The translations under genes and the position numbers were made by a program. From contig CAWFAD010000010.1 in assembly GCA_963813815.1 (NCBI GenBank), positions 1 through 64,000 on the forward strand: a stretch of 64,000 nucleotides of DNA, given 5' to 3'. Positions 8,250 to 27,056 of the stretch are shown piece after piece (the stretch's first letter is position 1; each line of letters begins with the position of its first letter). Source of the DNA: an uncultured bacterium. Lineage in GTDB: Bacteria > Krumholzibacteriota > Krumholzibacteriia > Krumholzibacteriales > Krumholzibacteriaceae. Under the pieces are notes generated by a model. That model was not told the DNA's origin, did no database searches, and saw only the letters and a list, made by a program, of their open reading frames with translations.

Positions 8250-8258
8250 GATGATCTC

Positions 8259-8325: not shown

Positions 8326-8379
8326 ACCTATAATTTAAGGAGAAGCGGCTGTCGTCGAGGTGGGAAGGGGGGATGGGAA

Positions 8380-9111: not shown

Positions 9112-9158
9112 TTGCACCATCGACTTTCGTACAGCTTTGCATGCAAGGGGAGGGCGTA

Positions 9159-9320
9159 ATGATTTATGTTTGCTACGTGCTCTTCGTCCTGGGAATGATC
9201 TCTTACATCTTTGCGGCCTTCAATATCGATTCCGGGGCCGGCGAGACGTATTCCGACATCGCCAACGCGCTGATGCTCATTACGGCGGTCCTTCTCCTGT
9301 TCAGGGCCGCGCGAAGATAG
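9159..9320 (+). CDS. Small two-TM membrane protein (53 aa)
   Basis: GGGGAGG RBS; two hydrophobic helices; fills the gap between neighbours. Confidence 0.65.
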   Translation: MIYVCYVLFVLGMISYIFAAFNIDSGAGETYSDIANALMLITAVLLLFRAARR

Positions 9321-9332
9321 GGGGCGAGGTCA

Positions 9333-9929
9333 ATGATGCGGGCGATTGCATTGTCTTGCATGATTGGGTTCATCGCGATGAGCGCATTCGCTTCGGAGAC
9401 TGTCGAGATTCCGCTGCCGGACCTTATCGGCACGTATGGCTCGGAAGATCCTCTTTCCGAGTGTTACACCATGCGAAGCGCACACTTTCTGTTCGATAGA
9501 ATACCCGATACCATATACGCGGTATGGATCAGGATATCCGGGACCGTGGTAGCCGGTCAGACCTACTGCGATTTCAGCGGATGGCCCCCGCCCGGCATAC
9601 AGATGGAAGGGATGTGCTTCACGGTCAACATGTATGATTCGCTGAGCTCCGCCACGTTGGGCGCGGGTTATTCCACGCCCAATGAGAATTCGGCTTTTGA
9701 GTGCCAATTGTCATTCTACCCGGTCTCTGAAGCGACATGGGAATATCTCGAGGCGGGTCGAGGAGATGTGAGACTCTCCGGTTCGGGGTACTGCAACCCG
9801 TTTGTTGAATGCTACGCCATTACGTGCGCGGTCGCGATAGTCAGCGAAGCGGTTCTTGTGGTTGAGGCTGACTTTGCCGTGTCGACGGAGAACGAATCTT
9901 GGGGAGTGATTAAGTCACTCTATCGATAG
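9333..9929 (+). CDS. Secreted hypothetical protein with C-terminal WGVIKSLYR tail (paralog of 1162-1761)
   Basis: Shares VAGQTYCDFSGWPPPGIQ, NPFVECYA and EADFAVST with the 1162 gene. Confidence 0.82.
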   Translation: MMRAIALSCMIGFIAMSAFASETVEIPLPDLIGTYGSEDPLSECYTMRSAHFLFDRIPDTIYAVWIRISGTVVAGQTYCDFSGWPPPGIQMEGMCFTVNMYDSLSSATLGAGYSTPNENSAFECQLSFYPVSEATWEYLEAGRGDVRLSGSGYCNPFVECYAITCAVAIVSEAVLVVEADFAVSTENESWGVIKSLYR

Positions 9930-9950
9930 CGATGTGGGTGACAAGAAGCG

Positions 9951-9985
9951 ACGTAACTCCACATGCAGCTGACTCCGGCAAGGGG
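9951..9985 (+). repeat. Internally deleted, chimeric attC
   Basis: Left arm ACGTAACTCCACATGCAG identical to attC 1783, joined at GCAGCTGA to a right end resembling 8230-8250. Confidence 0.65.
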
Positions 9986-9993
9986 ATGATCTC

Positions 9994-10575
9994 ATGCGCT
10001 CATTTCTATTGATAACCGTGCTGACGGCTCTCGCTCTTTCGGAATCCGTGCCCGCCGAGGTAGTGGAAGTGCCGCTTCCAGAGCTGCAGGGTCGATATTT
10101 CATCGAAGATACAGTAACGAGATACGCACGGTTTCAGATGGATGCTGCGCCCCTTTCCATAGCGGGGGTCTCTATTCGCATCACGGGCACCCATATATTG
10201 GGTGAGATCTGGTGCGAATTGGCATCGCCGATTACGGTTCCGCTGCCGTATTCGGTGGCTTTTACCGCGAGCATTCCCGATACAGTAAACGGATACTGGT
10301 GGATGGCGGCAGATAAGTCCCAATTGCTTTCGGGAGACTTTGAAATCACCATGCCCTTCAGGGAGATCTATGGTTGGTATGTTACATGGGATTTTCTTCT
10401 GGCGGGATATGGAGAGGTACGGCTCGATGGTCCACCTGCAGGGTATGTGCTTCTTTGCAATCCAACGATTTGGCCAGACGCGACGGTGACGAATGCTGTT
10501 TTGCTGGTCGAGGGGGAATTCCCCGTGGGCACGGATCAGAGCACGTGGGGGAGCATCAAGGCGTTGTTTCGATGA
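9994..10575 (+). CDS. Secreted hypothetical protein with C-terminal WGSIKALFR tail (distant paralog of the 1162 and 9333 genes)
   Basis: Signal peptide; EVPLPELQGRY, SIRITGT, TWDFL and ATVTNAVLLVEGEF align with the paralogs. Confidence 0.8.
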   Translation: MRSFLLITVLTALALSESVPAEVVEVPLPELQGRYFIEDTVTRYARFQMDAAPLSIAGVSIRITGTHILGEIWCELASPITVPLPYSVAFTASIPDTVNGYWWMAADKSQLLSGDFEITMPFREIYGWYVTWDFLLAGYGEVRLDGPPAGYVLLCNPTIWPDATVTNAVLLVEGEFPVGTDQSTWGSIKALFR

Positions 10576-10584
10576 TTGAGTGCG

Positions 10585-10695
10585 GCATAACTCTGCATGC
10601 AGCTGACGGCCGCTGCCGTCACGCCGCCTGCGGAGCACGCAGCGCGCCGGCCCGCCGGGGCTGCGGCGCGGCCGCGGCTGATGCCGGCGCTGTGG
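10585..10695 (+). repeat. attC site with degenerate right core (GCTGTGG)
   Basis: GCATAAC tctg CATGCAGC ... GCTGATG; body nearly identical to 1783-1894. Confidence 0.75.
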
Positions 10696-10718
10696 TTGCC
10701 GCAACCGAATAATAACGC

Positions 10719-10747
10719 TTGACAGTATTAACGTGACGCGTTAACAT
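10719..10747 (+). promoter_or_regulatory. higBA promoter with palindromic operator
   Basis: TTGACA-17-TAACAT; inverted repeat TTAACG-n5-CGTTAA at 10728-10744. Confidence 0.8.
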
Positions 10748-10753
10748 ATCCTC

Positions 10754-11035
10754 ATGATACGCAGCTTTCGAGACCGAGAAACGGAAAAGATATTTTGCGG
10801 AGAAGGATCGAGGCGCCTATCGCCTGAGATTCAAAGAAGAGCATTGCGAAAGCTGTTGCTTCTGGATGCGGCTGAGACCTTGGATGACGTGCGATCCGCT
10901 CCCGGAAATAGACTCGAGAAGCTCGTCGGCGATCGTGCCGGGCAATATAGTATCCGGATCAACGATCGATGGCGCATTTGCTTTCGCTGGGAGCGCGAGA
11001 ACGCTCACGAAGTAGAGATTGTAGATTACCACTAG
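10754..11035 (+). CDS. higB: HigB toxin (RelE/ParE superfamily)
   Basis: MIRSF..., PGNRLEKLVGDRAGQYSIRINDRWRICFRW, EIVDYH. Confidence 0.93.
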   Translation: MIRSFRDRETEKIFCGEGSRRLSPEIQRRALRKLLLLDAAETLDDVRSAPGNRLEKLVGDRAGQYSIRINDRWRICFRWERENAHEVEIVDYH

Positions 11036-11045
11036 GAGGCGAGTC

Positions 11046-11351
11046 ATGCCGGCAAGGAAGATACCACCGATTCATCCCGGCGAAATACTTCTCGAGGAAT
11101 ACCTGAAGCCGCTGGGATTGAGCCAGTACCGTTTGGCCAAGGACATCACGGTTCCGGCGCGTCGGGTGAACGAGATTGTTCATGGGAAGCGTGCCATCAC
11201 AGCCGATACTGCGCTGCGGCTCGCGCGCTATTTTGGCACCTCCGATCGTTTCTGGCTGAATCTTCAAACGCGCTACGATCTCGAGGTCGAAAAGGAGCGG
11301 CTCAAGGGACGATTGGAGCGAGAAGTCTCCAAGTATAGAGTCGCTAGCTGA
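11046..11351 (+). CDS. higA: HigA antitoxin (HTH)
   Basis: IHPGEILLEEYL, ITADTALRLARYFG, FWLNLQ. Confidence 0.95.
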   Translation: MPARKIPPIHPGEILLEEYLKPLGLSQYRLAKDITVPARRVNEIVHGKRAITADTALRLARYFGTSDRFWLNLQTRYDLEVEKERLKGRLEREVSKYRVAS

Positions 11352-11404
11352 TGAAATGAGCCATGCGCTCGGCAGAACATTCTGAGTGAGGCTTCTGTCC
11401 CCGA

Positions 11405-12228
11405 TCAAATCTCGAATCCGACGACGAGCTTGACCGCGGCGGCCGCGACGAGCGAGTAGAAGAGAAACGCCACGATCCAGTGAACCCTCCAGAAAAAGAG
11501 CGGGTAGCGGGCCGGAGGATACCGGAGCGTCACCGACTCGATGGGCGAGCCGTCCGGAATGGGCGGAAGCGCGGGGTGGAGGAGAGGCTCGATGAAGGAC
11601 GAGCCCCGCGCGCCGCCGATCATCCGGTGCGCCGGCTCCGCGACGAGGGGCGATCGTGTAGTCGACTCCATCGATCGAGATCGTGACGGCGTGCGTGCCG
11701 GCGCGAGTCGATCCTGATGCGCCACGCGAGCTCGCGCGTCGCGCGGATTCTCACGGGCCCCGCCTCCACGGCCGCTCCCGGGCCGCACGAGAGGGACGCG
11801 CTCACGGCGAGCGGATCGTTCCCCTCCGCGAGGAACACCGAGAGGACGGTCGTCGATCCGGCCGCGAGGTGGCTCCTCCCGTACCGCTCGTCGAGCTGCA
11901 TGAAAACTATCGCCGCGGGGACGACGATCACGAGAATCGGGAGCAGGATGTGCCGGAGATAGATGAGATTCGCCCGCAGCGCGCCGAGGAACGCGGCGAG
12001 TATGTTTCCCGCGTCGTCCCGGTAGATTCGCATCTCGAGTATGAACGATTTGGCGAGGTCCTTCGACTTCCTCACCTTCTCGGCGTTCGAGACGAGCTTG
12101 TAGAGGAGCGCCATCCCGACCCCCGCGAGGAGCGAGAGCCACGCGAGTCCGAGCGCGTGGCGCGCATGGCCCATGGGCGCGAGCAGCGCGTCGAACGCCG
12201 CGGTTATGATCTTCGAAACGAGCTCCAT
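11405..12228 (-). CDS. Three-TM membrane protein, EMC3/TMCO1/DUF106-like (frameshifts near 11705 and 11650)
   Basis: Amphipathic N-helix, TM1, charged helical loop, TM2, beta-rich extracytoplasmic region, final TM HWIVAFLFYSL; joined from ORFs 11620-12228 and 11405-12142. Confidence 0.6.
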
Positions 12229-12239
12229 AATCTCCCGCG

Positions 12240-12434
12240 TCAGGAAATGTACCCCAGACCCTCGAGCTTCTTCTTGATCTCCTCGTCCGTGGCCGCGTCG
12301 CCGCCCATCTTCGCCGCTTCCCTCTCGAGCACGTGGATGATGAACTCGCGCGTCGACGAGTAGCCCGCGATCGCCGCCGCCCTCTTGAGCTTCGCGAAGA
12401 GCTCCTTGTCGATCTTGATCTTCGGGTCGAACAT
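12240..12434 (-). CDS. Small ribbon-helix-helix-like protein with LEGLGYIS tail (64 aa)
   Basis: MFDPKIKIDKELFAKLKRAAAIAGYSSTREFIIHVLERE...EEIKKKLEGLGYIS. Confidence 0.72.
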   Translation of the reverse strand: MFDPKIKIDKELFAKLKRAAAIAGYSSTREFIIHVLEREAAKMGGDAATDEEIKKKLEGLGYIS

Positions 12435-12457
12435 GCGAGCGTTTCCTTCCCCGCCGG

Positions 12458-14426
12458 CTAGAATATCGGACGGCTCGATGCCGGCGCTTCCGAGCCGTCG
12501 ATGCCGAAGAGCGAGAGGATCGTGGCCGCGAAGTCGCAGAGCCGCGGATCGCTCACGCGCGGTTTTCTGTTCGCGATGAGGATGCCCGGGACCTCTTCCG
12601 GGGCCATGCAGTGGTCGCCGCTCCATTTGTCCATGTTCCAGGCGAAAACGTCCCGGGTGAAATCTCCGAGCACGGATTGATCGCTGCAGCGGTATCCCCG
12701 CCGGTAGCCGATGACGAGATCGGGCCCCCGCGCCGCCTCGGCGCCGTGATAGACCTCGCTCGCGCGGTACACGCTCTTGATCGGGAAGCCAGCCCGTCTC
12801 GGGATCCCGGACGGCGAGGAGCTTCTCGCGCGAGCTCGCGGAGCAGCGCCTCGTACTCGGCGCCCTCGCGCACGATCCCCTTGCTCTCGCGGCCGCGAAG
12901 GTTCACGTAGAGGCCGTTGAACCCCACCCCGTACGCCTTCGTTTTTCTCCAGTGGACGTTGCCGAAAAGGTGCGACTCCTCGAGGGCCGCCGGATCGACG
13001 AGCTCGATGTAGCCGTTCTCGAGAAGCCACGTGTTGAGGTTGAACTTCCGGTAGTAGGGGGAGAAGCCGTGGTCCGACATGATGATGAGCGTCGCGTCAC
13101 GCGGGATCCGCTCCATCACGCGCGCGACGAGGCCGTCCATTTCGGCGTAGAGATTCTCGATCTCGTCCCGGCGCGCGGCGGTCGTGTCGAAGTGCGCGGG
13201 ATGCTCCGGGTCCATGTTCCGCCAGAGCATGTGCTGGCAGAGATCGAGCGTCGAAACGTAGAAGAAGAGAAGCCCGCCCTCGTGCTCGTCGAGGGCGACG
13301 TCGAGCATCCGCCGCTGCTCGTCGAGAACGAGCCGGGCCTGACGGAGGTACTCGTCGTCGTCGAAGACGCCCCACTCGAGCGCCTTCGTGTCCTCGGGGT
13401 TCCCCTGCGTGTAGAAGTATCCGATCTTCTCGAAGAGCCCGGCCGCGTACCCGGACGGCGTCGAAATCGGGAGCGCGGGACGGCGCGGGTGGATGTTGAT
13501 CGGCGAGACGTAGAGGCCGAAGTAGGGGTCGATCGATTTGAGATAGAAGCGGCAGATGCCCTTCGAGCGAATGGAGCGGCCCCATGAGGTCGAACGAGAT
13601 CTCGACCCACGGGCTCCATTCGCCGACCGGCGAGGATCGTCTCCGATTTTCCGACGACGATCTTCGCCGCGCCGCTCATGCTATCGGCGTATACGGTGAG
13701 GGGGGCGGTGAGAATGGGCGAGCCGGCCTTGAGGGTATTCGCCGGGCCGGAGAGGACGGTCGAGACGACGCCGTTCTCGACGGCGACGGGATACATCTTT
13801 CCGCCGCTCGCGTCGAGGCCCGTGAAGGACGGATCGTTCGTGAAGTAGGAGAACGTGCCGTAGCTCCCGAGGAGATCCGGCGTCCCGAGGCCCGAGAGCG
13901 TCCGCCCTTTGCACGGGACGGGCGGAAAGTTCGACGGCATCCTCGATATCGTGTACGGCACGCCGTGCTCGTCGAGTATCTGCCAGAAGGCCTTGCCCTT
14001 TCTCAGCAAGGTCGCCTTCCCCGCCGAGAGGGGGATGGCCCACCCGCCGACGCGGAGCGTGTGCCCCGGCTCCTCGACGTGCGTGAGGGAGAAGGACGGC
14101 TGATACGTTTCGAGATCCCGGGTGATGTAGTCGAAGATGCCATGCCCGCCGGGATCCATCCCGGTGATGAAGCTCGACCACGCGACGGGGCTCTGGGGAG
14201 GCACGGACGTTCCGAGGCGCGAGTACGATCCTTCCCGCATGAGCTTCTGAAACGCCGGCATGCGCCCCTTCTCGACGAACCGTTCGAGGAGAACGGGATC
14301 CATGCCGTCGATTCCGAGGATGACGACGCTCGGCGTGCGGCCGGCCGGGCGCTCGGGAGCGCAGCTCCCCGCGACGGCGAGCGATGCGGCGGCGATGACG
14401 ACGCTCACGACGCGGCTCGCGCTCAC
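12458..14426 (-). CDS. Alkaline phosphatase superfamily (NPP/phosphodiesterase-like) protein, probable lipoprotein; several frameshifts
   Basis: LAVAGSC lipobox-like; ILGIDGMD, PPQSPVAWSSFITG, MSDHGF, WSGDHC; GTG start overlaps the upstream stop. Confidence 0.78.
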
Positions 14427-16505
14427 AGGAGATCCCTCCCCGTCATGTATCCCGGCGGATCGACGCCGAAGAGCTTGAGAATGGTCGGCGCGACGTCCAC
14501 GATGTTCGGATCGTCCTTTCCGACGCGCAGGTTCGAGAAGAGAACGCCGGGAACGAGCGCGGGATCGATGCAGTGGTCCCCGCTCCAGCTCTTTTCGTTG
14601 TTCTCGATGACGGCGTCCTTCACGATTCCCCTCGCGCAGTCCCACGATATCCGGTACCCCTCCTTGAGCCCCACGATGAGGTCCGGTCCCTCCCCGCGAT
14701 ACGGGCCGCTCATCTCGCGCGCGATATCATACACGCGGCTCACGACCGGCCCTCCGCCGCCCTCCTCCGCGAGCGCGAGGAGCTTCGCGCGATCTCCTTT
14801 TTGAGCGCGGGGGCTTCGGACGCATCGACCACGCCGTGCCGCTCCCGCCCCTTGACGTTGAGATAGATTCCCCCGAGACCGAGGGCGTAGGCGCGGGTTC
14901 TCGACCAGTCGACGTCCCGGAGGTACTCGGCGCCCGAGGCGTCTTCCCGCAGGGCGAGGTACCCCTGCTTCTTGAGCCATACGTTGAGATCGACGCCCCG
15001 TCTGAAGGCCTTGAAGCCGTGATCGGAGATCACGAAGAGCGCCGTCTCCTCGTCGACGAACGCGGCCGTCTTGCCGACGAGCGCGTCCATCTCGCGGTAC
15101 ATGTCGTTGAGGGTCTCCCGATGCTTCGCCCCGCCCGGACCGGCCCCGCCGCCGTCGACGAGATACCGGAAGAACATGTGCTGCATGCGGTCGCTGAGGT
15201 CGAAGACGCACGCCACGAGGCCCCGCTTCTGCTTCCGGAGCGTGTGCAGGAACATCGCTTCGCGCTCGCGATGAAAGAGGTACGCCTGCGCGATGAAGGC
15301 TTCGTCGTCGAGAACCCCCTCGTTCACGGCCCAGGTGTCCTCGGCGAGGCCGAGCGTGGCGAACGGCCCGCCGAGACGTTTGGCGAGGTACGCCGAGTAG
15401 AACGCCGGGTAGGAGACGGGCATGGCGGGCTTTTCGGGATCGATGTTGATCGGGGACACGTAGAGCCCGAAATCGCCGTCGAGGCGCGTGATGAAAAACC
15501 GCGCGATGCCGTGGATCTTGACGCCCGGCGCCGCCTTGAAGGCGAGGCGGATCCACGGGGAGTACGTCCGCTCGGGGAGGAAGAACCGGTTGCCCGATAC
15601 GCGTATCTCGGCGCCCCGTCTCGCGGCGTCGACGCGGATCTCGAGGGGAAGCTCGAGCGTCTCGCCCGTGAAGGGGCTCTCCGGGCCGGGAAGCGATGCC
15701 CTTGAGCACGCCCGCCTCCTCGTCGAGCGCGACGACCATGCCGCCGATCTTGCCGCCCGCGCCGCCGCGGCGGAAGTACGTGAACGATCCCATCGTGCCG
15801 CGCAGGTCGGGGACGCACATGCCCGATAGCATGACGCCGTAGAGCCGCTCCGGAGGGAACGTGATGGGGACTCTCAGGATCGCGCTGAAGATTCCGTAGT
15901 CGCCGAGCACGCTCCAGAAGCTCCTGCTCTTGCGGAGAAACCGGACGCGCCCCTTCTCGAGCGGCAGCCTGCCATCGCCCGAGCCGCAAGAATCTCTTCG
16001 GCGCCGCGACGCTGCTCGATGAGAGAACGGGGGCGTGGCTCGCCCTGTCCCGCGCGAGAAAATCGAAAATCCCGTGCCGCGACGCGTCGACGCCGGTGCT
16101 GAAGGTGGACCACGCCACGGGGGACATCGCGGGGATCGACGTGCCGAGCCGCCGGAACGTCCCCGTGGAGGCGAGGCGCGACATGTTGGGGAGCTCGCCC
16201 GCGGCCATGAGCCGCTCGCAGATCGCGGGATCGAGCCCGTCGAGACCGAGGACGATCGCCTTTTTCACGCGCGCCGCGCCCTCGGGCTTCCTGCGCCGCA
16301 GCCTCCTCCAGACGAGTCTCAGCGGGAAGGTGAGGAGGGCGGCGAACGCCGCGAAGAAGGCGAGCACGAACGAGAGAAAGGACGAGACGAGGGCGAACCC
16401 GGCGCCGGGGCCGATGTAGGCGTGCGCCGCGGCCGGCGCCACGAGCGCGAGGAGCGCCGCAGCGATCGCGATGCGGCCCGCCCGCCGTCGTCTATCTCGA
16501 GACAT
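14423..16505 (-). CDS. Alkaline phosphatase superfamily protein with signal peptide, AYIGPG motif and TM; several frameshifts
   Basis: AHAYIGPGAGF, VLGLDGLD, PAMSPVAWSTFSTG, ISDHGF, WSGDHC. Confidence 0.78.
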
Positions 16506-17799
16506 CGAGACTCCTCAGTATCTTTTCGGACACGTCCGCGACGTTCGGCTCGCCGTCGATCTCGATCGCCGACGGGTCGAGCGAGAAGAGGAACGCGTCG
16601 TCCCACGTGTGCATTCCTTGAAAGCGTCTCTCGCCCTCGATCCCTTCCGCGCCGACGCGGCCCTTGAGATCGAATCCGTTCCGCGGCACGAGCAGGAGAT
16701 CGGGGCCGTTCCGCGCGAAGGGGCCCGAGTACGCCTCTTCCCCGGTGAACTGCCTCCGCACGATCCGCTCGCCGCCCGCGGCGAGCCCCTCGAAGAGCGC
16801 CTCGAGATCCCTCAGGAGCGGGGCCGCGTCTCCAGCCTCGACGCTCCCCCGGGGAAATCTGCCCTTCCGGTTGAGGTAGATGCGCGCCGGATCGAGGGCG
16901 AAGGCCTTCGTGCTCTCCGTGATCCCCTCGAGGGACGACGCCCCGGGCGGGAGACGGAGAAAGCCCGCGTCGCGGAGGACCGAGTTGACGTAAATTTCCT
17001 TCTTCGTTCCGCAGAAGCCGTGGTCGGAGAGCATGAAGAATGCGCCGTCCGTCTCCATCCCTTCGAACCGCTCGAAAACGTGCCCCAGAAAGTCGTCGAT
17101 CGCCCGGTAATAGGCGAGAAAGTCGCCGCGGCGCGGGTGCCCTGCGTTTTCGTACGCGTCCCACAGAAAGTGGTGCAGTCGGTCGGTGCCCGTTACGACG
17201 ACCTCCATGTAGCTCCAATCCTCCCTGTCCCACAGATCGTCGAGCACGGCCCGCCTTCCGGCGAGGAGCCGGTGGAGCGACGAGAAGAGGGCGTCGTGGT
17301 CGTCGCGGCACTTCGCCGTGTCGACGTCGATTTCGTAGCGGAGGTCCTTGAGCGTCGAGAGGTAGGAGAGGGGAGCGACGGCCCTATCGAGCTCGAGGGC
17401 GACGAAGCCCGAGACGAGGACGCCGGAAATCGGGCGCGCCGGGTAGGTGGACGGCTGGTTGATGACGACGCTCTTCATGCGCCGCTCGCCGAGCACGTCC
17501 CAGATCGCGGGGGCTTTGAGATCCCTGAAGGACGGGTAGCGGAGCGAGTAGCTCGAATCCTTGAAATCGGTGAAGCCGAAGATGCCGTGGCCTCCGGGAT
17601 CGAGGCCCGTCATGAACGACGACCAGCTCACGGACGAGATTTCGGGAAGGGAGGCGGTCATGGGCGCGAGGCGCCCCCGGGATACGATCTCCTTCGTTTT
17701 CGGCATGACGCCCGAGTCGATCATGCCGCGAAGCAGCGTGCAGGGGACGCCGTCCAGGCCGACGACGCAGGTCTTCTTCTTGCCCCGTTTGCGGAACGT
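16492..17799 (-). CDS. Alkaline phosphatase superfamily (NPP-like) protein, cytoplasmic
   Basis: VVGLDGVP, PEISSVSWSSFMTG, TDRLHHF, LSDHGF; start unclear (ACG at 17799 behind GGGGAG). Confidence 0.82.
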   Translation of the reverse strand, partial: TFRKRGKKKTCVVGLDGVPCTLLRGMIDSGVMPKTKEIVSRGRLAPMTASLPEISSVSWSSFMTGLDPGGHGIFGFTDFKDSSYSLRYPSFRDLKAPAIWDVLGERRMKSVVINQPSTYPARPISGVLVSGFVALELDRAVAPLSYLSTLKDLRYEIDVDTAKCRDDHDALFSSLHRLLAGRRAVLDDLWDREDWSYMEVVVTGTDRLHHFLWDAYENAGHPRRGDFLAYYRAIDDFLGHVFERFEGMETDGAFFMLSDHGFCGTKKEIYVNSVLRDAGFLRLPPGASSLEGITESTKAFALDPARIYLNRKGRFPRGSVEAGDAAPLLRDLEALFEGLAAGGERIVRRQFTGEEAYSGPFARNGPDLLLVPRNGFDLKGRVGAEGIEGERRFQGMHTWDDAFLFSLDPSAIEIDGEPNVADVSEKILRSLDVSR

Positions 17800-17810
17800 G
17801 CGAGCTCCCC

Positions 17811-18419
17811 TTAGATGTATCCCAAATCCTTCAGCCGGGCCTTGATCTTCTCTTCTTCTTCCGGCGAGTACTCGCTCTCGGCGGGCGCTCCCGGAACGAG
17901 CCCCATGAGCTCGAGCGTGCGGATAATCTTCGCCGTGCTTTCCTCGATCGTTTCCTTGTCGGATTCGATCAGGATCTCCGGATGCTCGGGCTCCTCGTAC
18001 GGATCGGAGACGCCGGTGAAGTTCTTGATCTCGCCGGCGAGCGCCTTCTTGTACATTCCCTTGACGTCCCGCTCCGCGAGAACCGCGATCGGCGCCTTCA
18101 CGTAGACCTCGACGTACCTCTCTATCGCCCGCCGGTTCTCGTCCCGGATCGCGCGGTACGGCGATATGGCGGCGGCGACGGCGACGGCGCCGTTTCGGCT
18201 GAGGAGCTTGCACACGTAGCCGATGCGCCTGATGTTCGTGTCCCGGTCCTCCTTCGAGAACCCGAGGCCCTTGCAGAGGTTCTGCCGCACTTCGTCGCCG
18301 TCGAGCAGCTCGACGTTCATCCCCCTCTCGAGGAGGATTTCCTGTACGCGGAGCGCGAGCGTCGACTTGCCCGAGCAGGGAAGGCCGGTGAACCAAAGCG
18401 TGAACCCTTTCATTCTCAT
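17811..18419 (-). CDS. cysC: Adenylyl-sulfate kinase with C-terminal RLKDLGYI extension
   Basis: WFTGLPCSGKST P-loop, LDGDEVR, RDVKGMY, FTGVSDPYEEP. Confidence 0.95.
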   Translation of the reverse strand: MRMKGFTLWFTGLPCSGKSTLALRVQEILLERGMNVELLDGDEVRQNLCKGLGFSKEDRDTNIRRIGYVCKLLSRNGAVAVAAAISPYRAIRDENRRAIERYVEVYVKAPIAVLAERDVKGMYKKALAGEIKNFTGVSDPYEEPEHPEILIESDKETIEESTAKIIRTLELMGLVPGAPAESEYSPEEEEKIKARLKDLGYI

Positions 18420-18460
18420 CTCCCGGTGAAACGGTGTTTCGCGATGCCGCGTCCCGCGAT

Positions 18461-19854
18461 CTACATCACTCGCCCGATCATGTCGCCCGGAACGTCGATC
18501 GAGAAGTAATCGAGGATCGACGGGGCGACGTCGAAGATCGATATCTTGTCTCCGGCGGGGTTCGAGGTCGCGGGCCTCGAGCCGCCGCGGTTATGCCAGA
18601 TGAAAATCCCCTCCTGCGCGTGATTGGCGTCGTCGGGGCCGGTGTCGTTCTCGAAAATGCGGATCTTCCCGTGTCCCACGCTTCCGGCGCTCCGCCAGTC
18701 GAGATCGCCGAGGTAGACGATGAGATCGGGGGGGATGTTGTTGCACGTCCGGTAGACTTCCTCGGGATAGAACACGCGCGTGCCGATGCTCTTTCCGTTT
18801 TCGTCCGTGAGGGCCTCGAGCCGCCGTTTCACGTCGGCGCGCACGCTCTCGTATTCGGCCCGCGGGATCGTTCCCTCGCTCTCGCGTCCGGCCACGTTGA
18901 GAAACACCCGCGCGTAGTAGCCGCCCTCGCCCCACGCCGCCGTCTTGCTCCAGTCGACCATCGACGGCTTGAGGGAGACGGGCTTCGGGGGATACTCCTT
19001 GAGGGCGAGGAGCCCTTCCCGCAGGAAGAACTCGTTGATGCAGATGCCGCCGCGCATCGCCTTGGCGCCGTGATCGGACACGACGATGACGGAGGCGTCC
19101 GCGGGGATCGAGCTCAGGACCTTGCCGACTTCCTCGTCGAGATACCGGTAGTATCGGCGGATGACGTCCTCATACTCGTTCCCCGCGACGTAGAGCCGGT
19201 GCGAGGGGTCGCAGAATCGCCAGAAGGCGTGATGGATCCGGTCGGGACCCATTTCGACCATCATGGCGAAATCCCAATCCTCGCGCGCGAGGAGGTGCCG
19301 GAAGACCTTGAACCGCCGCTCCGTCATGAGGTAGATCTGCGCGAGGAGCGATTTCTTGTTCGTCGGTTCTGAAGTCCTTGACGTCGAGGATGTAGTCGCC
19401 GTCCGCGACGCGGTCGATCTCTTCCTTGAGCCCCGGCGGGTAGGTGAACTCGGACTCCTTGCCCGGCGTGAGGAAGTCGGCGACGAGCACGCCGTTGAGG
19501 GGTTTCGGCGGGTACGTCTGCGGCACGCCGAGGAGGATCGAGCGCAGGCGGTTTCTGCGAGAGGTGGTTCCAGACCGTCTTGGCCTTGACGTTGCTCGAG
19601 TTGACCGTGTAGAGCTCCTCGTAGGCGTAGCTCTTGCGGTTGCGGAACCCGTAGATGCCGAGCATGCCGGGATCCTGAGAGGTCATCATCGACGTCCACG
19701 CCGGGATCGTGATGGGGGGGACGATCGAGACGAGGTTTCCCCAGATGGAGCCGGCCGCGAGCCGCTTGAAATTCGGCATCTCGTCGAGGGGGGCGCCGTA
19801 GAGGAACTGCGGCGTCAGGCAATCGAGACCGATAACGACGAGCTTCTTCGACAT
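18461..19854 (-). CDS. Alkaline phosphatase superfamily (NPP-like) protein, cytoplasmic (frameshifts near 19560 and 19360)
   Basis: VIGLDC, PPITIPAWTSMMT, GPDRIHHAFW, VSDHGA, NDTGPDDANH. Confidence 0.82.
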
Positions 19855-19871
19855 CGCTCTCTTCCCCGATC

Positions 19872-21047
19872 TCAGGGCTTGCCCGGCGGCTCTCCGCCGC
19901 GCGAGGCGTAGTGGCGCTCGAGCACTTCCGCGATCTCCGGGCGGGTGAACTCGACGGGAATCGCCTCGCCACGCGCGAGCATCTCGCGGACGCGCGTGCC
20001 GCTCAGCTGCAGGTGCGCCTCTTTCCCGTGCGGGCAGGTCTTGGGAGAGCCCATCGTCGCGCATTTCGTGCAGTAGAAGGCGTGCTCGAACATCATGGGG
20101 ACGATCTCGAGCTCGCCCGGCTCGAAGGCGCCGAATATCTTCTGGGCGTCGTAGGTGCCGTAGTACGAGCCGACCCCCGCGTGATCCCGGCCGATGATCA
20201 TGTGCGTGCAGCCGTAGTTCTTTCTCAAGATGGCGTGAAAGATCGCCTCGCGCGGCCCCGCGTAGCGCATGGCGGCCGGAAATATCGAAAGGACCACGCG
20301 GTCCTTCGGGAAGTACCCGCTCGTGATCGCCTGATAGCAGAGCATCCGCACCGCGGCGGGAATGTCGTCCGATTTCGTTTCGCCCATGATGGGGTGGATG
20401 AGGAGGCCGTCCGTCATCTCGAGGGCGCATTTCAGGAGGTACTCGTGCGCGCGGTGGATCGGGTTGCGCGTTTGAAAGGCCACGACGCGCTCCCACCCCT
20501 TCGTCTTGAAGAGGATACGCGTCTCCCGCGGATCGAGATGGTAGCTCGCGAAGCTCTCGTCGACCATGCGCTCGAAGAGCGTGATCGGGCCTCCGGCGTA
20601 CGTGTCGCCGGTCGAGCGGAGGTACTGAACGCCGGGGTGGGCGGCGTCCCTCGTGAGGAGCACCTTCTCGGCCTCGCGCTCCTTGTCGACCGCGTACACG
20701 TCGTCGACGCGCATGACGCCGAGGACGGCTCCGTTCTCGGCGCGGAGCGCCGCTTCGAAGGGCGGCCGCATGGGGGCCTTTTCCCCGTCCTTGAGCGAGA
20801 GCGTGACGGGAATGGTCCAGGGAAGGCCGCGGGGGAGCCGCATCGAGTCGAGGACGCTCTCGTACTCGTCCCGGATCATGAATCCCTCGAGCGGGCTCAT
20901 GGCGCCGGTGGCGATGAGGGCGAGGTCGGAGAGCTCTCTCCGGTTGAGAACGATGGAGGGGAGGGTCTTCGCCTTCGCGGCGAGCGCCGCCCTCTCGCGC
21001 TCGTCGGCGAGGCGATTCACGAGCTGTCCGCCATGAGCCTGTATCAT
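19872..21047 (-). CDS. sat: Sulfate adenylyltransferase
   Basis: AFQTRNPIHRAHEY, MRYAGPREA, IIGRDHAGVG, LSGTRVRE. Confidence 0.96.
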   Translation of the reverse strand: MIQAHGGQLVNRLADERERAALAAKAKTLPSIVLNRRELSDLALIATGAMSPLEGFMIRDEYESVLDSMRLPRGLPWTIPVTLSLKDGEKAPMRPPFEAALRAENGAVLGVMRVDDVYAVDKEREAEKVLLTRDAAHPGVQYLRSTGDTYAGGPITLFERMVDESFASYHLDPRETRILFKTKGWERVVAFQTRNPIHRAHEYLLKCALEMTDGLLIHPIMGETKSDDIPAAVRMLCYQAITSGYFPKDRVVLSIFPAAMRYAGPREAIFHAILRKNYGCTHMIIGRDHAGVGSYYGTYDAQKIFGAFEPGELEIVPMMFEHAFYCTKCATMGSPKTCPHGKEAHLQLSGTRVREMLARGEAIPVEFTRPEIAEVLERHYASRGGEPPGKP

Positions 21048-21111
21048 CGTCGGCACTCTCCCGGAGTTGAAACGACGCGTAACTCTATATGATGCGGCAC
21101 AATGGCGGCTT

Positions 21112-23408
21112 TTACAAGGACTTTATCGCCGCGTTCCCGCGCCTCGTCTCGCCTGCTCGAGGGCGGCTCGGATAGGTCGGATTCCCCGGCTCTATCGCGA
21201 GCGCCGCCTCGAACTCCCTCGCCGCGCGATCGAGCTCTCCCGCCTTCGCGTAAATCACGCCGAGCGTGAAGCGCCCGTTCGCGTACTTCGGCTCCGTCGC
21301 GACCGCCCGCTCCGCGTAGCGGCGCGCCTCGTCGGGCCGGTTCGTCTCGAAGTAGAGGATGGCGAGGTTGCTCATCGCGAAGACGTCTTTCGGATTCGCC
21401 TCGAGGGCCCTGAACAGGGTTTTCTCGGCCTCCGGGTAGCGCTTGAGCTTGCCGTAGCACACGGCGAGATTGTTGAGCGTGCCCGCGTGGTTCGGCCTCA
21501 GGGCGAGCGCCTTCTTGAACTCCTCGATCGCCTTCTCGAGCTCGCCCTGAGCCTGATAGCGCTGTCCGAGGTTGTTGAGGGCGTCGGGATTCTCGACCGT
21601 GATGTAGCCGAGCGCCTCGAGCTTCTTGAGCTCGGCCTCGTCCGTCGAGCCTCCCCGCGGAACGGCGTCCCCCTCGGACTCGCGCTCGCGCTCGAGCGTG
21701 GCGACCGAGGCGGGATTCAGGGACTCCGCGAGCGACGTCTCGAAGGCGTCGATGAGCGCGCGTCCCGGCATGTCCTCGACCCGCGGAAACCCCGCGAGCG
21801 CCAGTATCGTCGGCGCGACGTCGATGAGCGAGGCTCCCTCGATGCGGTGCCCCCGGCGGATGCCCGGGCCGTAGAGGCAGATGATTCCCTCCGGGTTGTG
21901 CCATTGAAGGGCGTGTCCGCCCTCTATCTCCGCGCCGGAGGTCGGCCTCGAGTCGAGGCTCTTGAACCCGTGGTCGGAGGCGATCATGACGACGGTGTTT
22001 TCGCCGCATCTCGCGAGCAGCTCGCCGATGATCCGGTCCTGATAGACGTACGCCTCGACGACCGCGTCCTTGTATCTCCGGTAGCTCTTCCTCGCTCACC
22101 CCTTCCCGCCGCGGCGGCATGAAGGGCATGAAGAGGTGCCCCGTGGCGTCGACGAGCTCGAAATAGACGCCGAGAAAGTCCGGACGATCCTTCTCGAGCA
22201 GGTGGAGCGCGATCGCGCGGTAGCTCGCCGCGGTGGCGTAGGTGAGGAGCATGTCGTTCACGAGGTTCCCGGGATCGAACTCGGCCGAGCGGCTCCTTTC
22301 GATCTCGGCGGCGTCGACGTGCATGAATCGTTTCATCTCGTCGAACGGCACGTTCCCGCTTTTTACGATGAGCTTTCCGATCTCGTCCGCGCGCGCGGGA
22401 GGGTAGATGGCGCCGGGCAGAGGCGTTTCCCCTTGTCCGAGGGTCGCCGCGAAGGCGAGGTAGCCGACGCGGTCCGAGACCATCACTCCGTTGATCTTCT
22501 CCGCCGGGTGGGTCGCGAGCCACCCGACGACGTCGACGCTCCGCCCGTAGTCGCTCATCATGTTCCAGAAGGCGTCGACCTTCCGGTGCAGCCTCGTTAT
22601 GGGAATCTGCCTGCCGGTGGCGGGATCGACGGCGGTGCAGCTCAGTATGCCGTGCTCCTCGGGGAGCTTGCCCGTGGCCATCGTCGTCCAGAGAAGCGGG
22701 GAGATCATGGGATCCATCGAGCGAAGGGGACCCGTGGATCCGCCTTCGACGATCTTTTTGAAATTGGGAAGCTTGCCCCGCTCGATAAGGGGGTTAATGA
22801 TTCCCCAGTCGCCGGCGTCGACGCCGATAAAGACGATTTTTCTTATTGGCGCCGCGGAGACGTCCGCCGCGCTTTCCCCGCGCGGCCCCTCCCCACGATT
22901 CGATCTCGGCGGAGAGAACGGCGACCCGCGCTCCGGAGAGGGTCTCGCGGAGATCTTCCGCGACGGCGAGCGCGAAGGCCTCGGGTGTTTCCCCTTCCGC
23001 CGCGGGGCTCCACGCCGCGGCTCGTATTTCGACGGCGTCCCGGAAGACTTCCTCGATGCCCGCGGCGAACTCCTTGCCCACGATCCCGTAGAGATTCTCG
23101 GCGGAGCCCTCGGGGATGTCGAGCCGGAAGGAGAGAACGACCTCCGTTTGGCTTCCGTCCTTCAGAAGAACGGGGGCGCTCCCCTCCCGCGGAAAGCGCA
23201 GCGCGACCTCGCCGACGGGGTAGACGCTGAACGCGCCCGAGAAGGGGCGAACGAGATGCCACCCCGGTCCGTACGCGACCGGCCGGCCGCCGCCCGAAAC
23301 GAGCAGCGCCTCGCTGCCGGGCGGGACGCGCTTCAGGGAGACCGCGAGGGCGATCGCGACGACGGCGGCCGAAGCGAGCGCGAGGCCGCGCGAGCTTTCT
23401 TTCTTCAA
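21112..23408 (-). CDS. SPFH-like + alkaline phosphatase superfamily + TPR protein (frameshifts near 22880 and 22085)
   Basis: AGGAG RBS and TTG 23408; TM then GPGWHLVRPF; FIGVDAGDW, PMISPLLWTTMATG, ASDHGF, LEALGYI, then TPR repeats. Confidence 0.7.
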
Positions 23409-23572
23409 GTGTCGTCTCCTTTCGCGGGCGCATTGTACCATAGGACGCGGGACGATTCAGCAGCGTTATGGCGCCGTCTCGAGCCGAGGAACGATAGTGG
23501 TTGAAATGACCGCGCCGCACGATTTACCATCCACGCTGCGTGTCGAGTCGAAGGGACAGGACGGGGGGCGAT

Positions 23573-24536
23573 ATGAAACGAGCGTTCTGCGGATTGCTGG
23601 CGATGGCTCTTCTCGCCGGCCCCGGCTGCCGGGGAAACGGCGGCGAGCGGCGGGACTCGAAGGGGATCGAGGGGACGATCACGATATCCGGCGCGTGGGC
23701 CCTCTATCCCATGGCCGTCAAGTGGGCCGAGGAGTTCGAGAAGCTTCATCCGGGGATACGAATGGACGTTTCGGCCGGGGGCGCGGGGAAGGGCATGGCC
23801 GACGCGCTGGCCGGCGTGGCGGATATCGGTCTCGTATCGCGCGATCTCCATCCCGCCGAAATCGACAAGGGAGCGTGGGGCGTGGCGGTGGTCGTGGACG
23901 CCGTCGTTCCCACCATAAACGACGGCAATCCGGCTCTCGGCGATCTGCTCCGCGCGGGGGCGAGCCGGGAAGCGCTCGCCGGAATCTGGGTGACCGGCGC
24001 GGTCACGAAATGGAGCGACGTCGTTCCGGGCGCCGCCCCGGGCTCGATTCGCGTCTATACGCGCTCCGACGCCTGCGGCGCCGCGGAGACCTGGGCCAAG
24101 TATCTGGGAAAAGACCAGGACGATCTCCTCGGCGTCGGCGTGTACGGCGACCCCGGAGTGGCCGAGGCGATTCAGAGGGACCCGCTTGGGCGCCGGTTTC
24201 AACAACATCAACTACGTCTACGACGCCGCGACGAAACTGCCGATCGCGGGGCTCCGGGTTCTGCCCATCGATCTCGACGGCGACGGACGGCTCGATGCGG
24301 ACGAGGATTTCTACGGGAGCCGGGACTCGCTCGTCGCGGCGATAGCCTCGGGCCGCTATCCGTCGCCTCCCGCGCGGGACCTCTACTTCGTGTCCCGGGG
24401 CAGGCCCGCGCGCGGCGCGGTGGCGGAGTTCGTCAGGTGGGTCCTGACGGACGGACAGCGATACGTCGCCGAAGCGGGGTACGTGGCGCTCGGCGGCGAG
24501 AGGCTCGAGGAAGGGTTGCGGAGGCTCGAGGAATAG
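23573..24536 (+). CDS. pstS: Phosphate ABC transporter substrate-binding lipoprotein (frameshift near 24185)
   Basis: Lipobox LAGPGC; ITISGAWALYP, SAGGAGKG; upstream of pstCAB. Confidence 0.85.
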
Positions 24537-24542
24537 GAAGCG

Positions 24543-25431
24543 ATGATCAGGCTCATGAAGGACAGGCTCGCCGGAGCGAGCATGCGGGCGTGGACGGTCG
24601 TTTCCGGGCTCATCGTGTTCGCGATGATCGTCGGGCTGTACGTGAGATCCCGGCCGATACTCTCCGCGAGGCCCCTTTCGGAGCTCCTCTTCTCGACCTC
24701 GTGGCACCCCCTCAGGGGGGAGTTCGGCCTCTTCACTTTCATCGCGGGCACGCTCTGGGTGACGGCGGTGGCCGTCGCCATAGCGGTCCCGCTCTGTCTC
24801 CTCTCCGCGATCTATCTCGCCGAGTACGCGCCCCGGCGGCTGCGGGAGTGGACTGCCCCCCTCATCGATCTCCTCGCCGGCATACCGTCGGTCGTGTTCG
24901 GGGTCTGGGGAGTGCTCGTGATCGTGCCGCTCGTCAAGAATCATATCGCTCCCTTCTACGGAGCGTCCTCGAGCGGATACTGCGTGCTCTCGGCGGGCGT
25001 CGTTCTCGCGATCATGGTGTTCCCGGTCATCGTGCACGTCTCGGTCGAGGTCCTGCGATCCGTCCCGAACGAGATGCAGGGAGGCCTCTCTCGCGCTCGG
25101 GGCCACGCAGTGGCAGACGATCAAGCACGTCGTCGTGCGCAAGGCCATGCCGGGAGTCATGGCCGCCATCGTCCTCGGCCTGTCGCGCGCCTTCGGAGAG
25201 ACGATGGCCGTGCTCATGGTGGCGGGGAACGTGTCCGCCGTTCCGTCGTCCGTCTTCGATCCCGCCTATCCGCTCCCGGCGCTCATCGCCAACAAGTACG
25301 GCGAAATGCTCTCCGTGCCGATGTACGATTCGGCGCTCCTGCTCGCCGCCCTCGTCCTGCTCGTGGTGGTTCTCCTCGTCAACGTCGCGGCGCGGGCGAT
25401 CCTGCTGCGGGTCGAAAGAAGCGTGTGGTAG
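24543..25431 (+). CDS. pstC: Phosphate ABC transporter permease (frameshift near 25080)
   Basis: [29 protein letters not shown]. Confidence 0.88.
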
Positions 25432-25433
25432 GG

Positions 25434-26286
25434 ATGAACGCGAGAAGGCTGGAAGAGATCGCGGGAAAGGGGCTCTCGGCCGCGGCGGCCGCCGTGCTCT
25501 TTCTCGAGCCTCTTCCTCATACTGGGCACGATCGTCGCGAAGGGGTTGCCGTCCCTGAATCTGGCGATGCTCACCGAAACCCCGAAGGGGGGATATTACC
25601 TCGGGAAGGAAGGGGGCATTCTCAACGCGATCGTCGGCTCGCTCTATCTCGCGGGGGGCGCCACGCTTCTCGCCCTGCTGCTCGGCGCGCCCGTCGTCAT
25701 GTATCTCAACGTGTACGCGAAGAAACGAAGCCGCCTCGTTCTCTTCACGAGATTCTCCTTCGACGTCCTCTGGGGCGTCCCTTCCATAGTGTACGGAGCG
25801 TTCGGCTTCACCATCATGCTGCTCTTCGGGCTCAAGGCCTCGCTGCTCGGCGGCATCATCGCCGTGGCCCTCATGATCCTCCCCATCATGAGCAGGGCGA
25901 TGGACGAGGTCGTGCGGATGGTTCCGCAGGAGCTTTTCGAGGCGTCCTACGCCCTCGGGGCGACGCGTCTCGAGACCGCCCTCAAGGTGGTGGCGCGGCA
26001 GGCCCTGCCGGGAATCATGACGGCGATTCTCATCGCGTTCGGCCGGGGGATCGGGGACGCCGCCTCCGTCATGTTCACGGCGGGATTCACCGACGACGTT
26101 CCGACGTCGCTCTTCCGGCCGGCGGCCACGCTGCCGCTCGCGATTTTCTATCAGCTCGGAACGCCGTTCCCGGAGGTTCAGAGCCGCGCGTATGCGTCGG
26201 CGCTCATTCTCACGGCGATCGTTCTCGCCATCAGTTTCGTTTCGAGGATTCTCGCGAGCAGGCTCACGAAGCATATCGTGAAATGA
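25434..26286 (+). CDS. pstA: Phosphate ABC transporter permease (frameshift near 25510)
   Basis: LWGVPSIVYGAFG, EASYALGATR, GRGIGDAA. Confidence 0.88.
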
Positions 26287-26294
26287 AAGGTGCC

Positions 26295-27056
26295 ATGGAA
26301 TACCAGCCGCCGATCAGCGTGAGGGGTCTCGACATTCACTACGGGGAAGAGCACGCCCTGAAAAACGTATCGGTCGACATACCCGGCAGAAAGATCACGG
26401 TCATCATCGGCCCGTCCGGGTGCGGCAAGACGACGCTGCTCAAATCCTTCAACCGCCTCGTGGATCTGGCCGACGGGGTCAAGGTCTCCGGCGAGGTGCT
26501 CGTCAACGGCGAGAACATCTACGCGCCCGGCGTGGACGTCACGCGGATCAGGAAAAAGATGGGCCTGCTGTCGCAGAAGCCGTATCCGCTGCCGATGTCG
26601 ATCTACGACAACGTCGCCTACGGCCCGCGCATTCACGGGACGAAGAAAAAGCGCGAGCTCGACGGCATCGTCGAGCGCTACCTCAAGGAGTCGGGGCTCT
26701 GGGACGAGGTGCGCGACCGGCTGCACGCGCCGGCGTCGAAGCTCTCGCTCGGCCAGCAGCAGCGGCTGTGCCTCGCGAGGGGGCTCGCGGTGGAGCCCGA
26801 GATCATTCTCTGCGACGAGCCCACCTCGGCCCTCGACCCGGTCTCGAGCAGGCGCATCGAGGAGAGGTTCCGGGAGCTCAAGAGCTCCTACACGATCGTC
26901 GCCGTCACGCACATCCTGCGCCAGGCGCGCCGGCTCGCCGATTACGTGATATTCCTCTACCTCGGAGAGCTCGTGGAGCACGGCCCGGCGGAGAAGATTT
27001 TCGAGGACCCCGACAAGGCGATGACGCGGGAGTACATCAAGGGGATTATCAGCTGA
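26295..27056 (+). CDS. pstB: Phosphate ABC transporter ATPase
   Basis: GPSGCGKT, LSLGQQQRLCLAR, DEPTSALDP. Confidence 0.93.
   Translation: MEYQPPISVRGLDIHYGEEHALKNVSVDIPGRKITVIIGPSGCGKTTLLKSFNRLVDLADGVKVSGEVLVNGENIYAPGVDVTRIRKKMGLLSQKPYPLPMSIYDNVAYGPRIHGTKKKRELDGIVERYLKESGLWDEVRDRLHAPASKLSLGQQQRLCLARGLAVEPEIILCDEPTSALDPVSSRRIEERFRELKSSYTIVAVTHILRQARRLADYVIFLYLGELVEHGPAEKIFEDPDKAMTREYIKGIIS

Follow-up and report, generated by a model that had tools for sequence, protein, structure and literature searches.

Two described systems come closest to the operon reported here. The first is a cassette of the archaeon Pyrococcus yayanosii that holds copG, an ATP sulfurylase, a DHH-type phosphatase of 3'-phosphoadenosine-5'-phosphate (a pApase, which has been characterised), a type I phosphodiesterase/nucleotide pyrophosphatase and an adenosine-5'-phosphosulfate (APS) kinase; according to that report, neither a sulfotransferase nor a sulfite-to-sulfide enzyme has been identified in the organism (PMC8268124). 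The second is the pair Agl30 (VNG1056C, a membrane protein) and Agl31 (VNG1057C, cytosolic) of Halobacterium salinarum, which deletion and heterologous expression indicate to be needed for N-glycan sulfation and sufficient for it in a heterologous host; both are proteins of the alkaline phosphatase (AP) superfamily that resemble S1 sulfatases, with BT1596 and FA22070 as their best structural matches (PMC11980604). An archaeal cassette of the sat-NPP-cysC kind (NPP, nucleotide pyrophosphatase/phosphodiesterase) and AP-superfamily sulfotransferases are already published; our literature searches turned up no account of the two-module operon of bacteria described below. This operon lies on the minus strand of a window of 64,000 nucleotides (G000:C10:1-64000) from the genome of an uncultured bacterium of the Krumholzibacteriaceae (G000; 2.53 Mb in 16 contigs, 66% GC, 90.8% complete), and it combines the genes for synthesis of 3'-phosphoadenosine-5'-phosphosulfate (PAPS) with five NPP-type enzymes.

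Along the minus strand the genes are NPP1 (21112..23441), sat (19872..21056), NPP2 (18461..19854), cysC (17811..18419), NPP3 (16492..17799), NPP4 (14423..16505), NPP5 (12458..14426) and a homolog of a family that we call ORF275 (11405..12228). Both sat, for sulfate adenylyltransferase, and cysC, for APS kinase, are intact and are the sole copies in the genome. The Sat reading frame of the window (19872-21122) matches the ATP-sulfurylase and PUA_2 families of Pfam with an E value of 7e-97 (PF01747, 323 bits; PF14306, 166 bits), and its 86% identical ortholog in G010, a genome of the same genus, scores 533.7 bits against NCBIfam NF003166 (cut-off, 387). The CysC frame (17811-18590) matches PF01583 APS_kinase (200.7 bits, E 2e-59), and the ortholog in G018, of the same family as G000, scores 247.8 bits against NF002059 (cut-off, 244) and 216 bits against TIGR00455 (cut-off, 138.7). 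Because these sole PAPS-making genes sit with the NPP-type enzymes, and the genome has no recognisable PAPS user, the NPP-type enzymes, which are uncharacterised, are a possible and unusual sulfate-transfer system. The association of PAPS synthesis with these AP-superfamily enzymes is very probably genuine, and it recurs in different phyla, where three gene orders are found. As to function, our tentative preference is for PAPS-dependent sulfation of the envelope in which one or more of the NPP-type enzymes would serve as sulfotransferase, which we put forward as a serious possibility rather than as the probable answer; its chemistry, its acceptor and the order of its steps are what we infer.

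A sequence-only reading of this DNA had noted five NPP-like proteins with Ser or Thr at the nucleophile position and SDHG motifs, interleaved with sat and cysC. Pfam searches (50 reading frames of at least 70 amino acids, 10959-27056) and motif location confirmed the presence of both genes and of both sets of motifs: on the minus strand, the nucleophile motifs are PMISP in NPP1 (22711-22697), PPITI in NPP2 (19719-19705), PEISS in NPP3 (17646-17632), PAMSP in NPP4 (16133-16119) and PPQSP in NPP5 (14201-14187), and SDHG occurs at 21978, 19078, 17028, 15027 and 13077. Three points required amendment. The stretch had been ended at 23408, and NPP1 extends to 23441; a conserved eighth gene, ORF275, and a divergent pstSCAB cluster had been overlooked; and, although the motifs of the five enzymes stand, NPP3 alone among them is uninterrupted in the given sequence, the nucleophile and SDHG motifs of NPP1, NPP2, NPP4 and NPP5 lying in different frames. 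As discussed below, the assembly is the most likely source of these interruptions.

The five proteins differ in architecture and predicted location. NPP1 has an N-terminal transmembrane (TM) segment, an SPFH/Band7 domain, an NPP-type AP-superfamily domain (GVDA, PMISP and SDHG motifs) and C-terminal TPR repeats. NPP2 (GLDC, PPITI with a Thr nucleophile, SDHG) and NPP3 (GLDG, PEISS, SDHG) are without a signal and are predicted to be cytoplasmic. NPP4 (GLDG, PAMSP, SDHG) begins with a signal-like segment ending in AHA, followed by YIGPGAG, a TM helix and a cluster of Arg and Lys residues before the catalytic domain, which under the positive-inside rule suggests a membrane-anchored enzyme facing the cytoplasm. 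NPP5 (GIDG, PPQSP, SDHG), a predicted exported enzyme, has a lipobox-like LAVAGSC here and RRDFL signals for twin-arginine translocation (Tat) in its orthologs. Both NPP4 and NPP5 carry inserts of about 200 amino acids. The assignment of two proteins to the cytoplasm (NPP2 and NPP3), two to membrane anchors (NPP1 and NPP4) and one to the lipoproteins (NPP5), as in the sequence-only reading, is thus reasonable.

Like the Xanthomonas NPP (2gsn), ENPP1/3 and PhnA (1ei6), the operon proteins match PF01663 (Phosphodiest) and have bimetal ligands and a Thr/Ser nucleophile. The PF01663 scores are 50-116 bits for the fragments in the window (cut-off, 23) and 87-153 bits for the NPP1-5 orthologs of G010, G018 and G036, the last a genome of the same class. 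Alignment residues D28, S67/S68, D218/H221/H222, D271/H272 and H409 are invariant in NPP3, as are D29, T67, D222/H226, D278/H279 and H429 in NPP2; these columns correspond to the Asp of GxDG/C, to P-x-x-S/T, D-x-x-H-H and S-D-H-G, and to a distal His. By analogy we take them to be metal ligands and nucleophile, and with roles so assigned, every NPP-type enzyme of the operon would keep a complete bimetal site and a Ser/Thr nucleophile. The NPP2 model (mean predicted confidence, pLDDT, 78) retrieves PhnA (1ei6, E 1e-13) and ENPP1/3 (E about 5e-12) in Foldseek; these and the Xanthomonas NPP (2gsn) are its best matches, with E values from 1e-13 to 1e-10, TM scores of 0.5-0.65 and only 13-17% identity. 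A phmmer search of NPP2 against sequences of the Protein Data Bank (PDB) gave no match, and an NPP3 profile found PhnA alone (E 5e-5). No NCBIfam family covers NPP1-5 or ORF275, and ESM Atlas returned only generic "alkaline phosphatase family" clusters. Matches to the sulfatase family PF00884 are weak, at 22.8 bits for the G010 NPP1 (below the cut-off of 25) and 30.1 bits for the G036 NPP2, beside a 145-bit match to PF01663. With these scores, and with nucleophile motifs that are not the formylglycine motif CxPxR of sulfatases, as had been observed earlier, NPP1-5 do not appear to be of S1 sulfatase type. The operon proteins differ from the NPP and PhnA enzymes in their context, which is PAPS synthesis and not nucleotide scavenging, and in the inserts of NPP4 and NPP5. 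NPP2 also has an invariant Arg89 and Arg91 shortly after the nucleophile motif, presumably near the place of the phosphoryl-binding Asn of NPPs. Outside the locus the genome has one further NPP-like paralog, the sixth and a more distant one (G000:C11:131897-132856), and most genomes of the same genus without the operon carry this paralog (open reading frames [ORFs] of about 500 amino acids, 29-34% identity to NPP3).

The ORF275 homolog is the conserved last gene of its module and encodes a membrane protein of about 275 amino acids. The model (pLDDT 88.6) comprises three TM helices together with a coiled coil and a domain of Ig-like fold. No Pfam family exceeds its cut-off, the EMC3/TMCO1 family PF01956 scoring 19.6 bits against a cut-off of 27.1. 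VIA-align against 48,161 chains placed the multipass translocon entry 7tut_8 first (Z 8.0, 135 residues), with YidC (3wo7) at Z 6.9, in a range (Z under about 13 for helical proteins) that may reflect a common arrangement of helices, and Foldseek against the PDB matched only the Ig-like domain, at E values above 1e-3. The model thus faintly resembles TMCO1/YidC, and we treat the resemblance as a lead only. A 567-amino-acid ORF after NPP5 in G010 (L013 16547-18250) was rejected as an artefact of a masked run of N, read as X in translation; the true family is about 275 amino acids long.

The sequence-only reading had also claimed that the locus holds no enzyme that would spend PAPS, and this claim was borne out for the locus and extended to the 90.8%-complete genome, in which profiles and a custom hidden Markov model (HMM) detect no sulfotransferase, PAPS reductase or sulfite reductase family. 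In G000, as in G010 and G018, there is no match to PF13469 (Sulfotransfer_3), PF00685 (Sulfotransfer_1) or PF01507 (PAPS_reduct). The custom HMM, built from 23 P-loop sulfotransferase domains of relatives, recovered four sulfotransferases outside its training set and gave no match in the six-frame translation of G000 or in 3,839 ORFs of 83 loci. The families PF03567, PF17784 and PF09037 are likewise without a match in G000, G010, G018 and G036, but these negatives are weak because the control genomes were also silent for all three. A dissimilatory role for sat was rejected, because cysC is present and neither G000 nor six relatives have a match to PF01077 (NIR_SIR). Among homologous loci, no canonical sulfotransferase lies within 10 kb of NPP3 in any of the 80 that we surveyed.

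The locus is a vertically conserved operon, made up of two modules that travel together: module A, Sat-NPP2-CysC, and module B, NPP3-NPP4-NPP5-ORF275. Taking one genome per species gave 505 relatives of NPP3, of which the best 80 loci were examined with 10-kb flanks; the loci of G010, G018 and G036 recur as 3 of these 80, and close NPP3 homologs are labelled Candidatus Eisenbacteria, Krumholzibacteria and Latescibacteria. NPP3 is followed by NPP4 in 79 of the 80 loci and NPP5 by an ORF275 homolog in 64, most of the rest ending at a contig edge. The modules are fused, with NPP2-CysC directly upstream of NPP3, in 19 loci, all on Eisenbacteria-, Krumholzibacteria- or Latescibacteria-labelled contigs; Sat is present in 11 of these, the contig ends first in 5, and an upstream flank is present without Sat in 3. 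The flanks of the other 61 loci, mostly from Aminicenantes, contain no sat, cysC or NPP2. In Aminicenantes the modules are unlinked: NPP2 adjoins CysC at a place separate from module B in G042, G043 and G044, with Sat flanking NPP2-CysC in G042 and G044, where the two places are about 0.5-1.2 Mb apart. NPP1 is restricted to the family of G000, with distant relatives in two other loci of the survey. Two genomes whose sequence was inspected have a third arrangement, NusG-like-CysC-Sat-NPP3-like, for which nine more give evidence by coordinates only; in all eleven the NPP3-like gene is 1.2-1.7 kb from CysC. In a quick maximum-likelihood tree (IQ-TREE), the NPP3-like genes of these NusG-like-CysC-Sat operons fall inside the NPP3 clade (support, 100), NPP2 forms a clade of its own (99), and NPP1, NPP2 and NPP3 are split from NPP4 and NPP5 (100).

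Co-occurrence was assessed in 121 genomes of at least 85% completeness from the class of G041, a genome labelled as a complete Aminicenantes chromosome. NPP2 orthologs are present in 46 of these genomes, APS kinase in 110 and the NPP3 family in 96, and these and the following counts are not corrected for shared ancestry. CysC lies on the same contig within about 450 nucleotides downstream of NPP2 in 39 of the 46 (3 of the other 7 NPP2 genes lie at contig ends), all 46 also have NPP3, and CysC is found in 93 of the 96 NPP3-positive genomes versus 17 of the 25 NPP3-negative ones. PF13469, PF00685 and PF01507 are all absent from 32 of the 46 genomes with NPP2, and a canonical sulfotransferase is matched in 11 of the 46 as against 59 of the 75 NPP2-negative genomes. 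In this sample the APS kinases that adjoin NPP2 are open frames of about 180-200 amino acids, and a higher-scoring kind of about 205-275 amino acids occurs in NPP2-negative genomes; some genomes have both. A flippase-like gene (PF03706/TIGR00374, LPG_synthase_TM) stands divergently beside the fused operon, upstream of sat/NPP2, on Krumholzibacteria- and Latescibacteria-labelled contigs (L024, L025, L027, L028, L029, L036 and L040), and the same gene is found a few genes upstream in several Aminicenantes loci.

The comparison with the described systems is informative in both directions. As in the P. yayanosii cassette, an uncharacterised NPP-type gene annotated as PF01663 is embedded between ATP sulfurylase and APS kinase, and the order sat-NPP2-cysC recurs in the window, in the 11 Sat-containing fused loci and in three Aminicenantes genomes. 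Unlike that cassette, the operon adds a second cytoplasmic paralog, membrane, exported and SPFH-TPR paralogs and ORF275, and Pfam finds no DHH or RHH/CopG domain in the 50 frames of the window or in the G010, G018 and G036 loci. With Agl30/Agl31 the operon shares the AP superfamily and the presence of membrane and cytosolic members, and the pair is a precedent for addition of sulfate to an envelope glycan by this superfamily; the published text, as searched, contains no link of Agl30/31 to sat or cysC (PMC11980604). In the scheme that we favour, Sat and CysC would make PAPS, and one or both of the cytoplasmic NPP-type enzymes (NPP2 and possibly NPP3) would spend it. By way of a Thr/Ser-O-sulfate intermediate, the sulfuryl group would reach an envelope precursor linked to the membrane or to a carrier, and NPP4, ORF275 and the exported NPP5 would act on the product at and beyond the membrane. 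LtaS, EptA and OpgB, AP-superfamily enzymes that are either anchored in the membrane or exported, transfer a charged head group to envelope acceptors by way of a Thr/Ser intermediate; they belong to the Sulfatase family (PF00884) and use phospholipid donors. NPP4 and NPP5 would work in a like manner.

Several observations weigh against envelope sulfation by these enzymes. Phosphorus is the usual target of NPP-type enzymes, which could thus do no more than hydrolyse PAPS or APS, and the exported NPP5 would be unable to reach cytoplasmic PAPS. Agl30 and Agl31 belong to the sulfatase branch, whereas the operon proteins belong to the NPP/PhnA branch, with a Ser/Thr nucleophile and no CxPxR, and no sulfate donor is named for Agl30/31 in the text searched (PMC11980604). 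The genome is only 90.8% complete, and shared ancestry may contribute to the co-occurrence. G036, G045 and G165 carry the fused operon together with unlinked canonical Sulfotransfer_3 genes, and G041 has module B without APS kinase and NPP2. Finally, an NPP3-clade gene stands directly upstream of a Sulfotransfer_3 gene in G092 and G145. The G092 locus (L109 6523-19730) contains a NusG-like gene, the NPP3-clade gene, Sulfotransfer_3, four GT4 glycosyltransferases, two methyltransferases and two more sulfotransferases; the G145 locus (L110) has the same first three genes and then the contig ends. To judge from its genes, the G092 locus looks like a putative sulfated-polysaccharide locus in which the NPP would be accessory rather than the sulfotransferase.

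These last arrangements bear on the main rival explanation, in which NPP2 and NPP3 serve PAPS metabolism as helper hydrolases, either degrading pyrophosphate (PPi) to pull the unfavourable sulfurylase reaction or hydrolysing pAp, PAPS or APS, while the true sulfotransferase is an unrecognised protein elsewhere. Hydrolysis at phosphorus is native to the fold, PhnA and the ENPPs being the closest structures, and NPP3-clade genes occur not only beside the canonical sulfotransferases of G092 and G145 but also in NusG-like-CysC-Sat-NPP "PAPS supply" operons of genomes with many such enzymes. For the type I phosphodiesterase of the cassette, the P. yayanosii report offers degradation of PPi as a speculation (PMC8268124). 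A role in disposal of pAp would be consistent with the lack of an IMPase/CysQ-family match in G000; however, four of the five genomes tested, all but G000, have one IMPase-family gene each, which might act as CysQ, and the co-residence of a DHH pApase makes it unlikely that the NPP-like gene of the archaeal cassette encodes a pAp phosphatase (PMC8268124). An accessory role also leaves unexplained why there are two cytoplasmic paralogs in one operon and why NPP2 co-occurs strictly (46/46) with the module that holds the membrane and exported paralogs and ORF275. It leaves the PAPS user unnamed in G000, G010, G018 and the 32 Aminicenantes-class genomes without a detectable sulfotransferase or reductase. 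We regard a purely accessory role as rather unlikely, though it deserves to be taken seriously.

The sequence-only reading had gone further than envelope sulfation and proposed a relay that moves sulfate from cytoplasmic PAPS to an envelope acceptor. In the boldest form of such a relay, NPP2 and NPP3 would take sulfate from PAPS as Thr/Ser-O-sulfate and, at NPP4, load it onto an acceptor linked to a lipid or a carrier; ORF275, which is TMCO1/YidC-like, would pass the charged group through the bilayer; and NPP5, exported by Tat or as a lipoprotein, would transfer or trim sulfate on an extracytoplasmic polymer. One part of this proposal survives, namely the link of PAPS to the NPP-type enzymes, which is conserved, with no canonical consumer detected in G000, G010 and G018. 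The strict relay does not fare as well: module B of G041 without APS kinase and NPP2, the NPP3-clade genes beside sulfotransferases in two genomes and the speculative assignment of the archaeal counterpart to PPi hydrolysis all count against it, and we consider a complete sulfuryl relay across the cytoplasmic membrane improbable. If it did exist, it would add a structurally new class to the PAPS sulfotransferases and be the first system in bacteria for sulfotransfer outside the cytoplasm.

Next to NPP1, and divergent from it, lies pstS-pstC-pstA-pstB (23501..27056, plus strand), separated from the operon by about 60-100 bp in G000. The arrangement is the same in G010 and G018, and could indicate that the NPPs are phosphate-scavenging phosphodiesterases co-regulated with pstSCAB in a Pho regulon, with sat and cysC either riding along or supplying sulfate substitutes for phosphate-containing envelope anions under phosphate limitation. 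The Tat signal on NPP5 orthologs fits this idea, since the Pho-regulated PhoD and PhoX are likewise Tat-exported. Adjacency to pst, however, is limited to this family (G000, G010 and G018 only), and in other lineages the operon borders the flippase-like PF03706 gene, genes for a CCA-adding enzyme and Hsp70, or unrelated genes. The catalytic domains are cytoplasmic in three of the five NPPs, and the tight linkage of NPP2 to CysC across phyla is unexpected for scavenging enzymes. A function in phosphate scavenging is hence very unlikely in our view.

The copy of the operon in the window is interrupted by about 15 single-base frameshifts, nearly all insertions, which break NPP1, NPP2, NPP4, NPP5, ORF275 and pstS/C/A; sat, cysC and NPP3 are the only single open frames of the minus-strand operon, and the Pfam matches of the other NPPs are split between frames. 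Within genes, the phase of the G+C content at third codon positions (GC3) jumps. By tblastn, the G010 proteins align to the window as colinear, frame-switching segments of 59-90% identity (most 73-90%). NPP1, colinear with an intact 781-amino-acid G010 protein, lies in three frames (2 switches; shifts near 22893 and 22087), as does NPP2 (2; near 19557 and 19358); NPP4 has four frame segments (3; near 15970, 15704 and 14788), as does NPP5 (3; near 13564-13630, 12830 and 12790); ORF275 has 2 switches (near 11702 and 11652); and pstS, pstC and pstA have one switch each, due to +1 insertions at 24194, 25077 and 25505. G010 and G018 have the operon genes as intact ORFs of 781, 394, 481, about 200, 438, 693 and 657 amino acids, and the gene order is present as single ORFs in G036 also.

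At the DNA level, nearly all shifts are isolated +1 insertions in the window, outside homopolymers, and frameshifting indels relative to G010 are confined to a 14-kb block at about 11,650-25,505; in a 20-kb control at 30,000-49,999, compared with G004 and G010, differences that are not a multiple of three occur only at gene ends or between genes. Logan contigs from other runs (X1, X3 and X4, 92-99% alike) have one base fewer at at least six of the insertion sites, among those listed 11651, 11704, 12781/12782, 19362, 19556 and 22087. Because relatives and independent contigs are without the shifts, and the shifts are confined to one block, they are most likely consensus errors of the assembly in a poorly polished, low-coverage accessory region. 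An alternative is that the frameshifts are real and that the whole pst and NPP/sat/cysC block is a dying accessory island in this strain, which is a question separate from function. G012 lacks the block at the syntenic position, only 3 of the 25 family genomes searched have it, and a HigBA pair and a stretch of low GC lie at its flanks; some 15 indels not divisible by three within coding sequence would also fit decay. Almost all of these events are +1 insertions, however, and the extra bases are absent from the X1, X3 and X4 contigs; the segments retain their identity to G010, frame segments not meeting at a shift are without stop codons, GC3 periodicity is intact, and the control region shows no such disruption of genes. 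Decay of the block thus has little to recommend it. This copy is riddled with probable assembly errors, and intact orthologs are available in G018 and G036.

The start of NPP3 is unusual in a way that looks genuine. No ATG, GTG or TTG is present at the homologous start (window 17797-17813). An ACG lies 5 nucleotides after a strong Shine-Dalgarno sequence, GGGGAG in G000 and AGGGAG in G010 (L013, about 10960-10975), and G018 has ATG; ACG may be a conserved non-canonical start codon. The 410-amino-acid model of the gene caller takes an internal Met as its start and is thereby deprived of the GLDG metal ligand. As for the surroundings, the operon end is adjoined by a toxin gene of HigB type (PF05015) and an ORF resembling HTH_3 antitoxins (10754-11351), inside a lower-GC stretch at 8000-12000 (GC 0.55-0.59) in which the other ORFs have no Pfam match. 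Upstream, 1920-8151 holds intact genes whose products are a 703-amino-acid member of the beta-lactamase family, an NmrA-like protein that binds NAD(P) and a catalase-peroxidase-like protein of 733 amino acids with two peroxidase domains.

In summary, many uncultivated bacteria and archaea make PAPS without a PAPS reductase or a recognisable sulfotransferase. The class sample illustrates this, with APS kinase in 110 of the 121 genomes as against a PAPS_reduct match in only 12. An enzyme family that is conserved with sat and cysC is an obvious candidate for the PAPS user. Depending on the biochemistry, the operon would represent either a new class of sulfotransferases, within the NPP branch of the AP superfamily, or a housekeeping step that is new to sulfate activation. 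The two-module architecture supplies concrete, testable proteins and predicts an envelope product.

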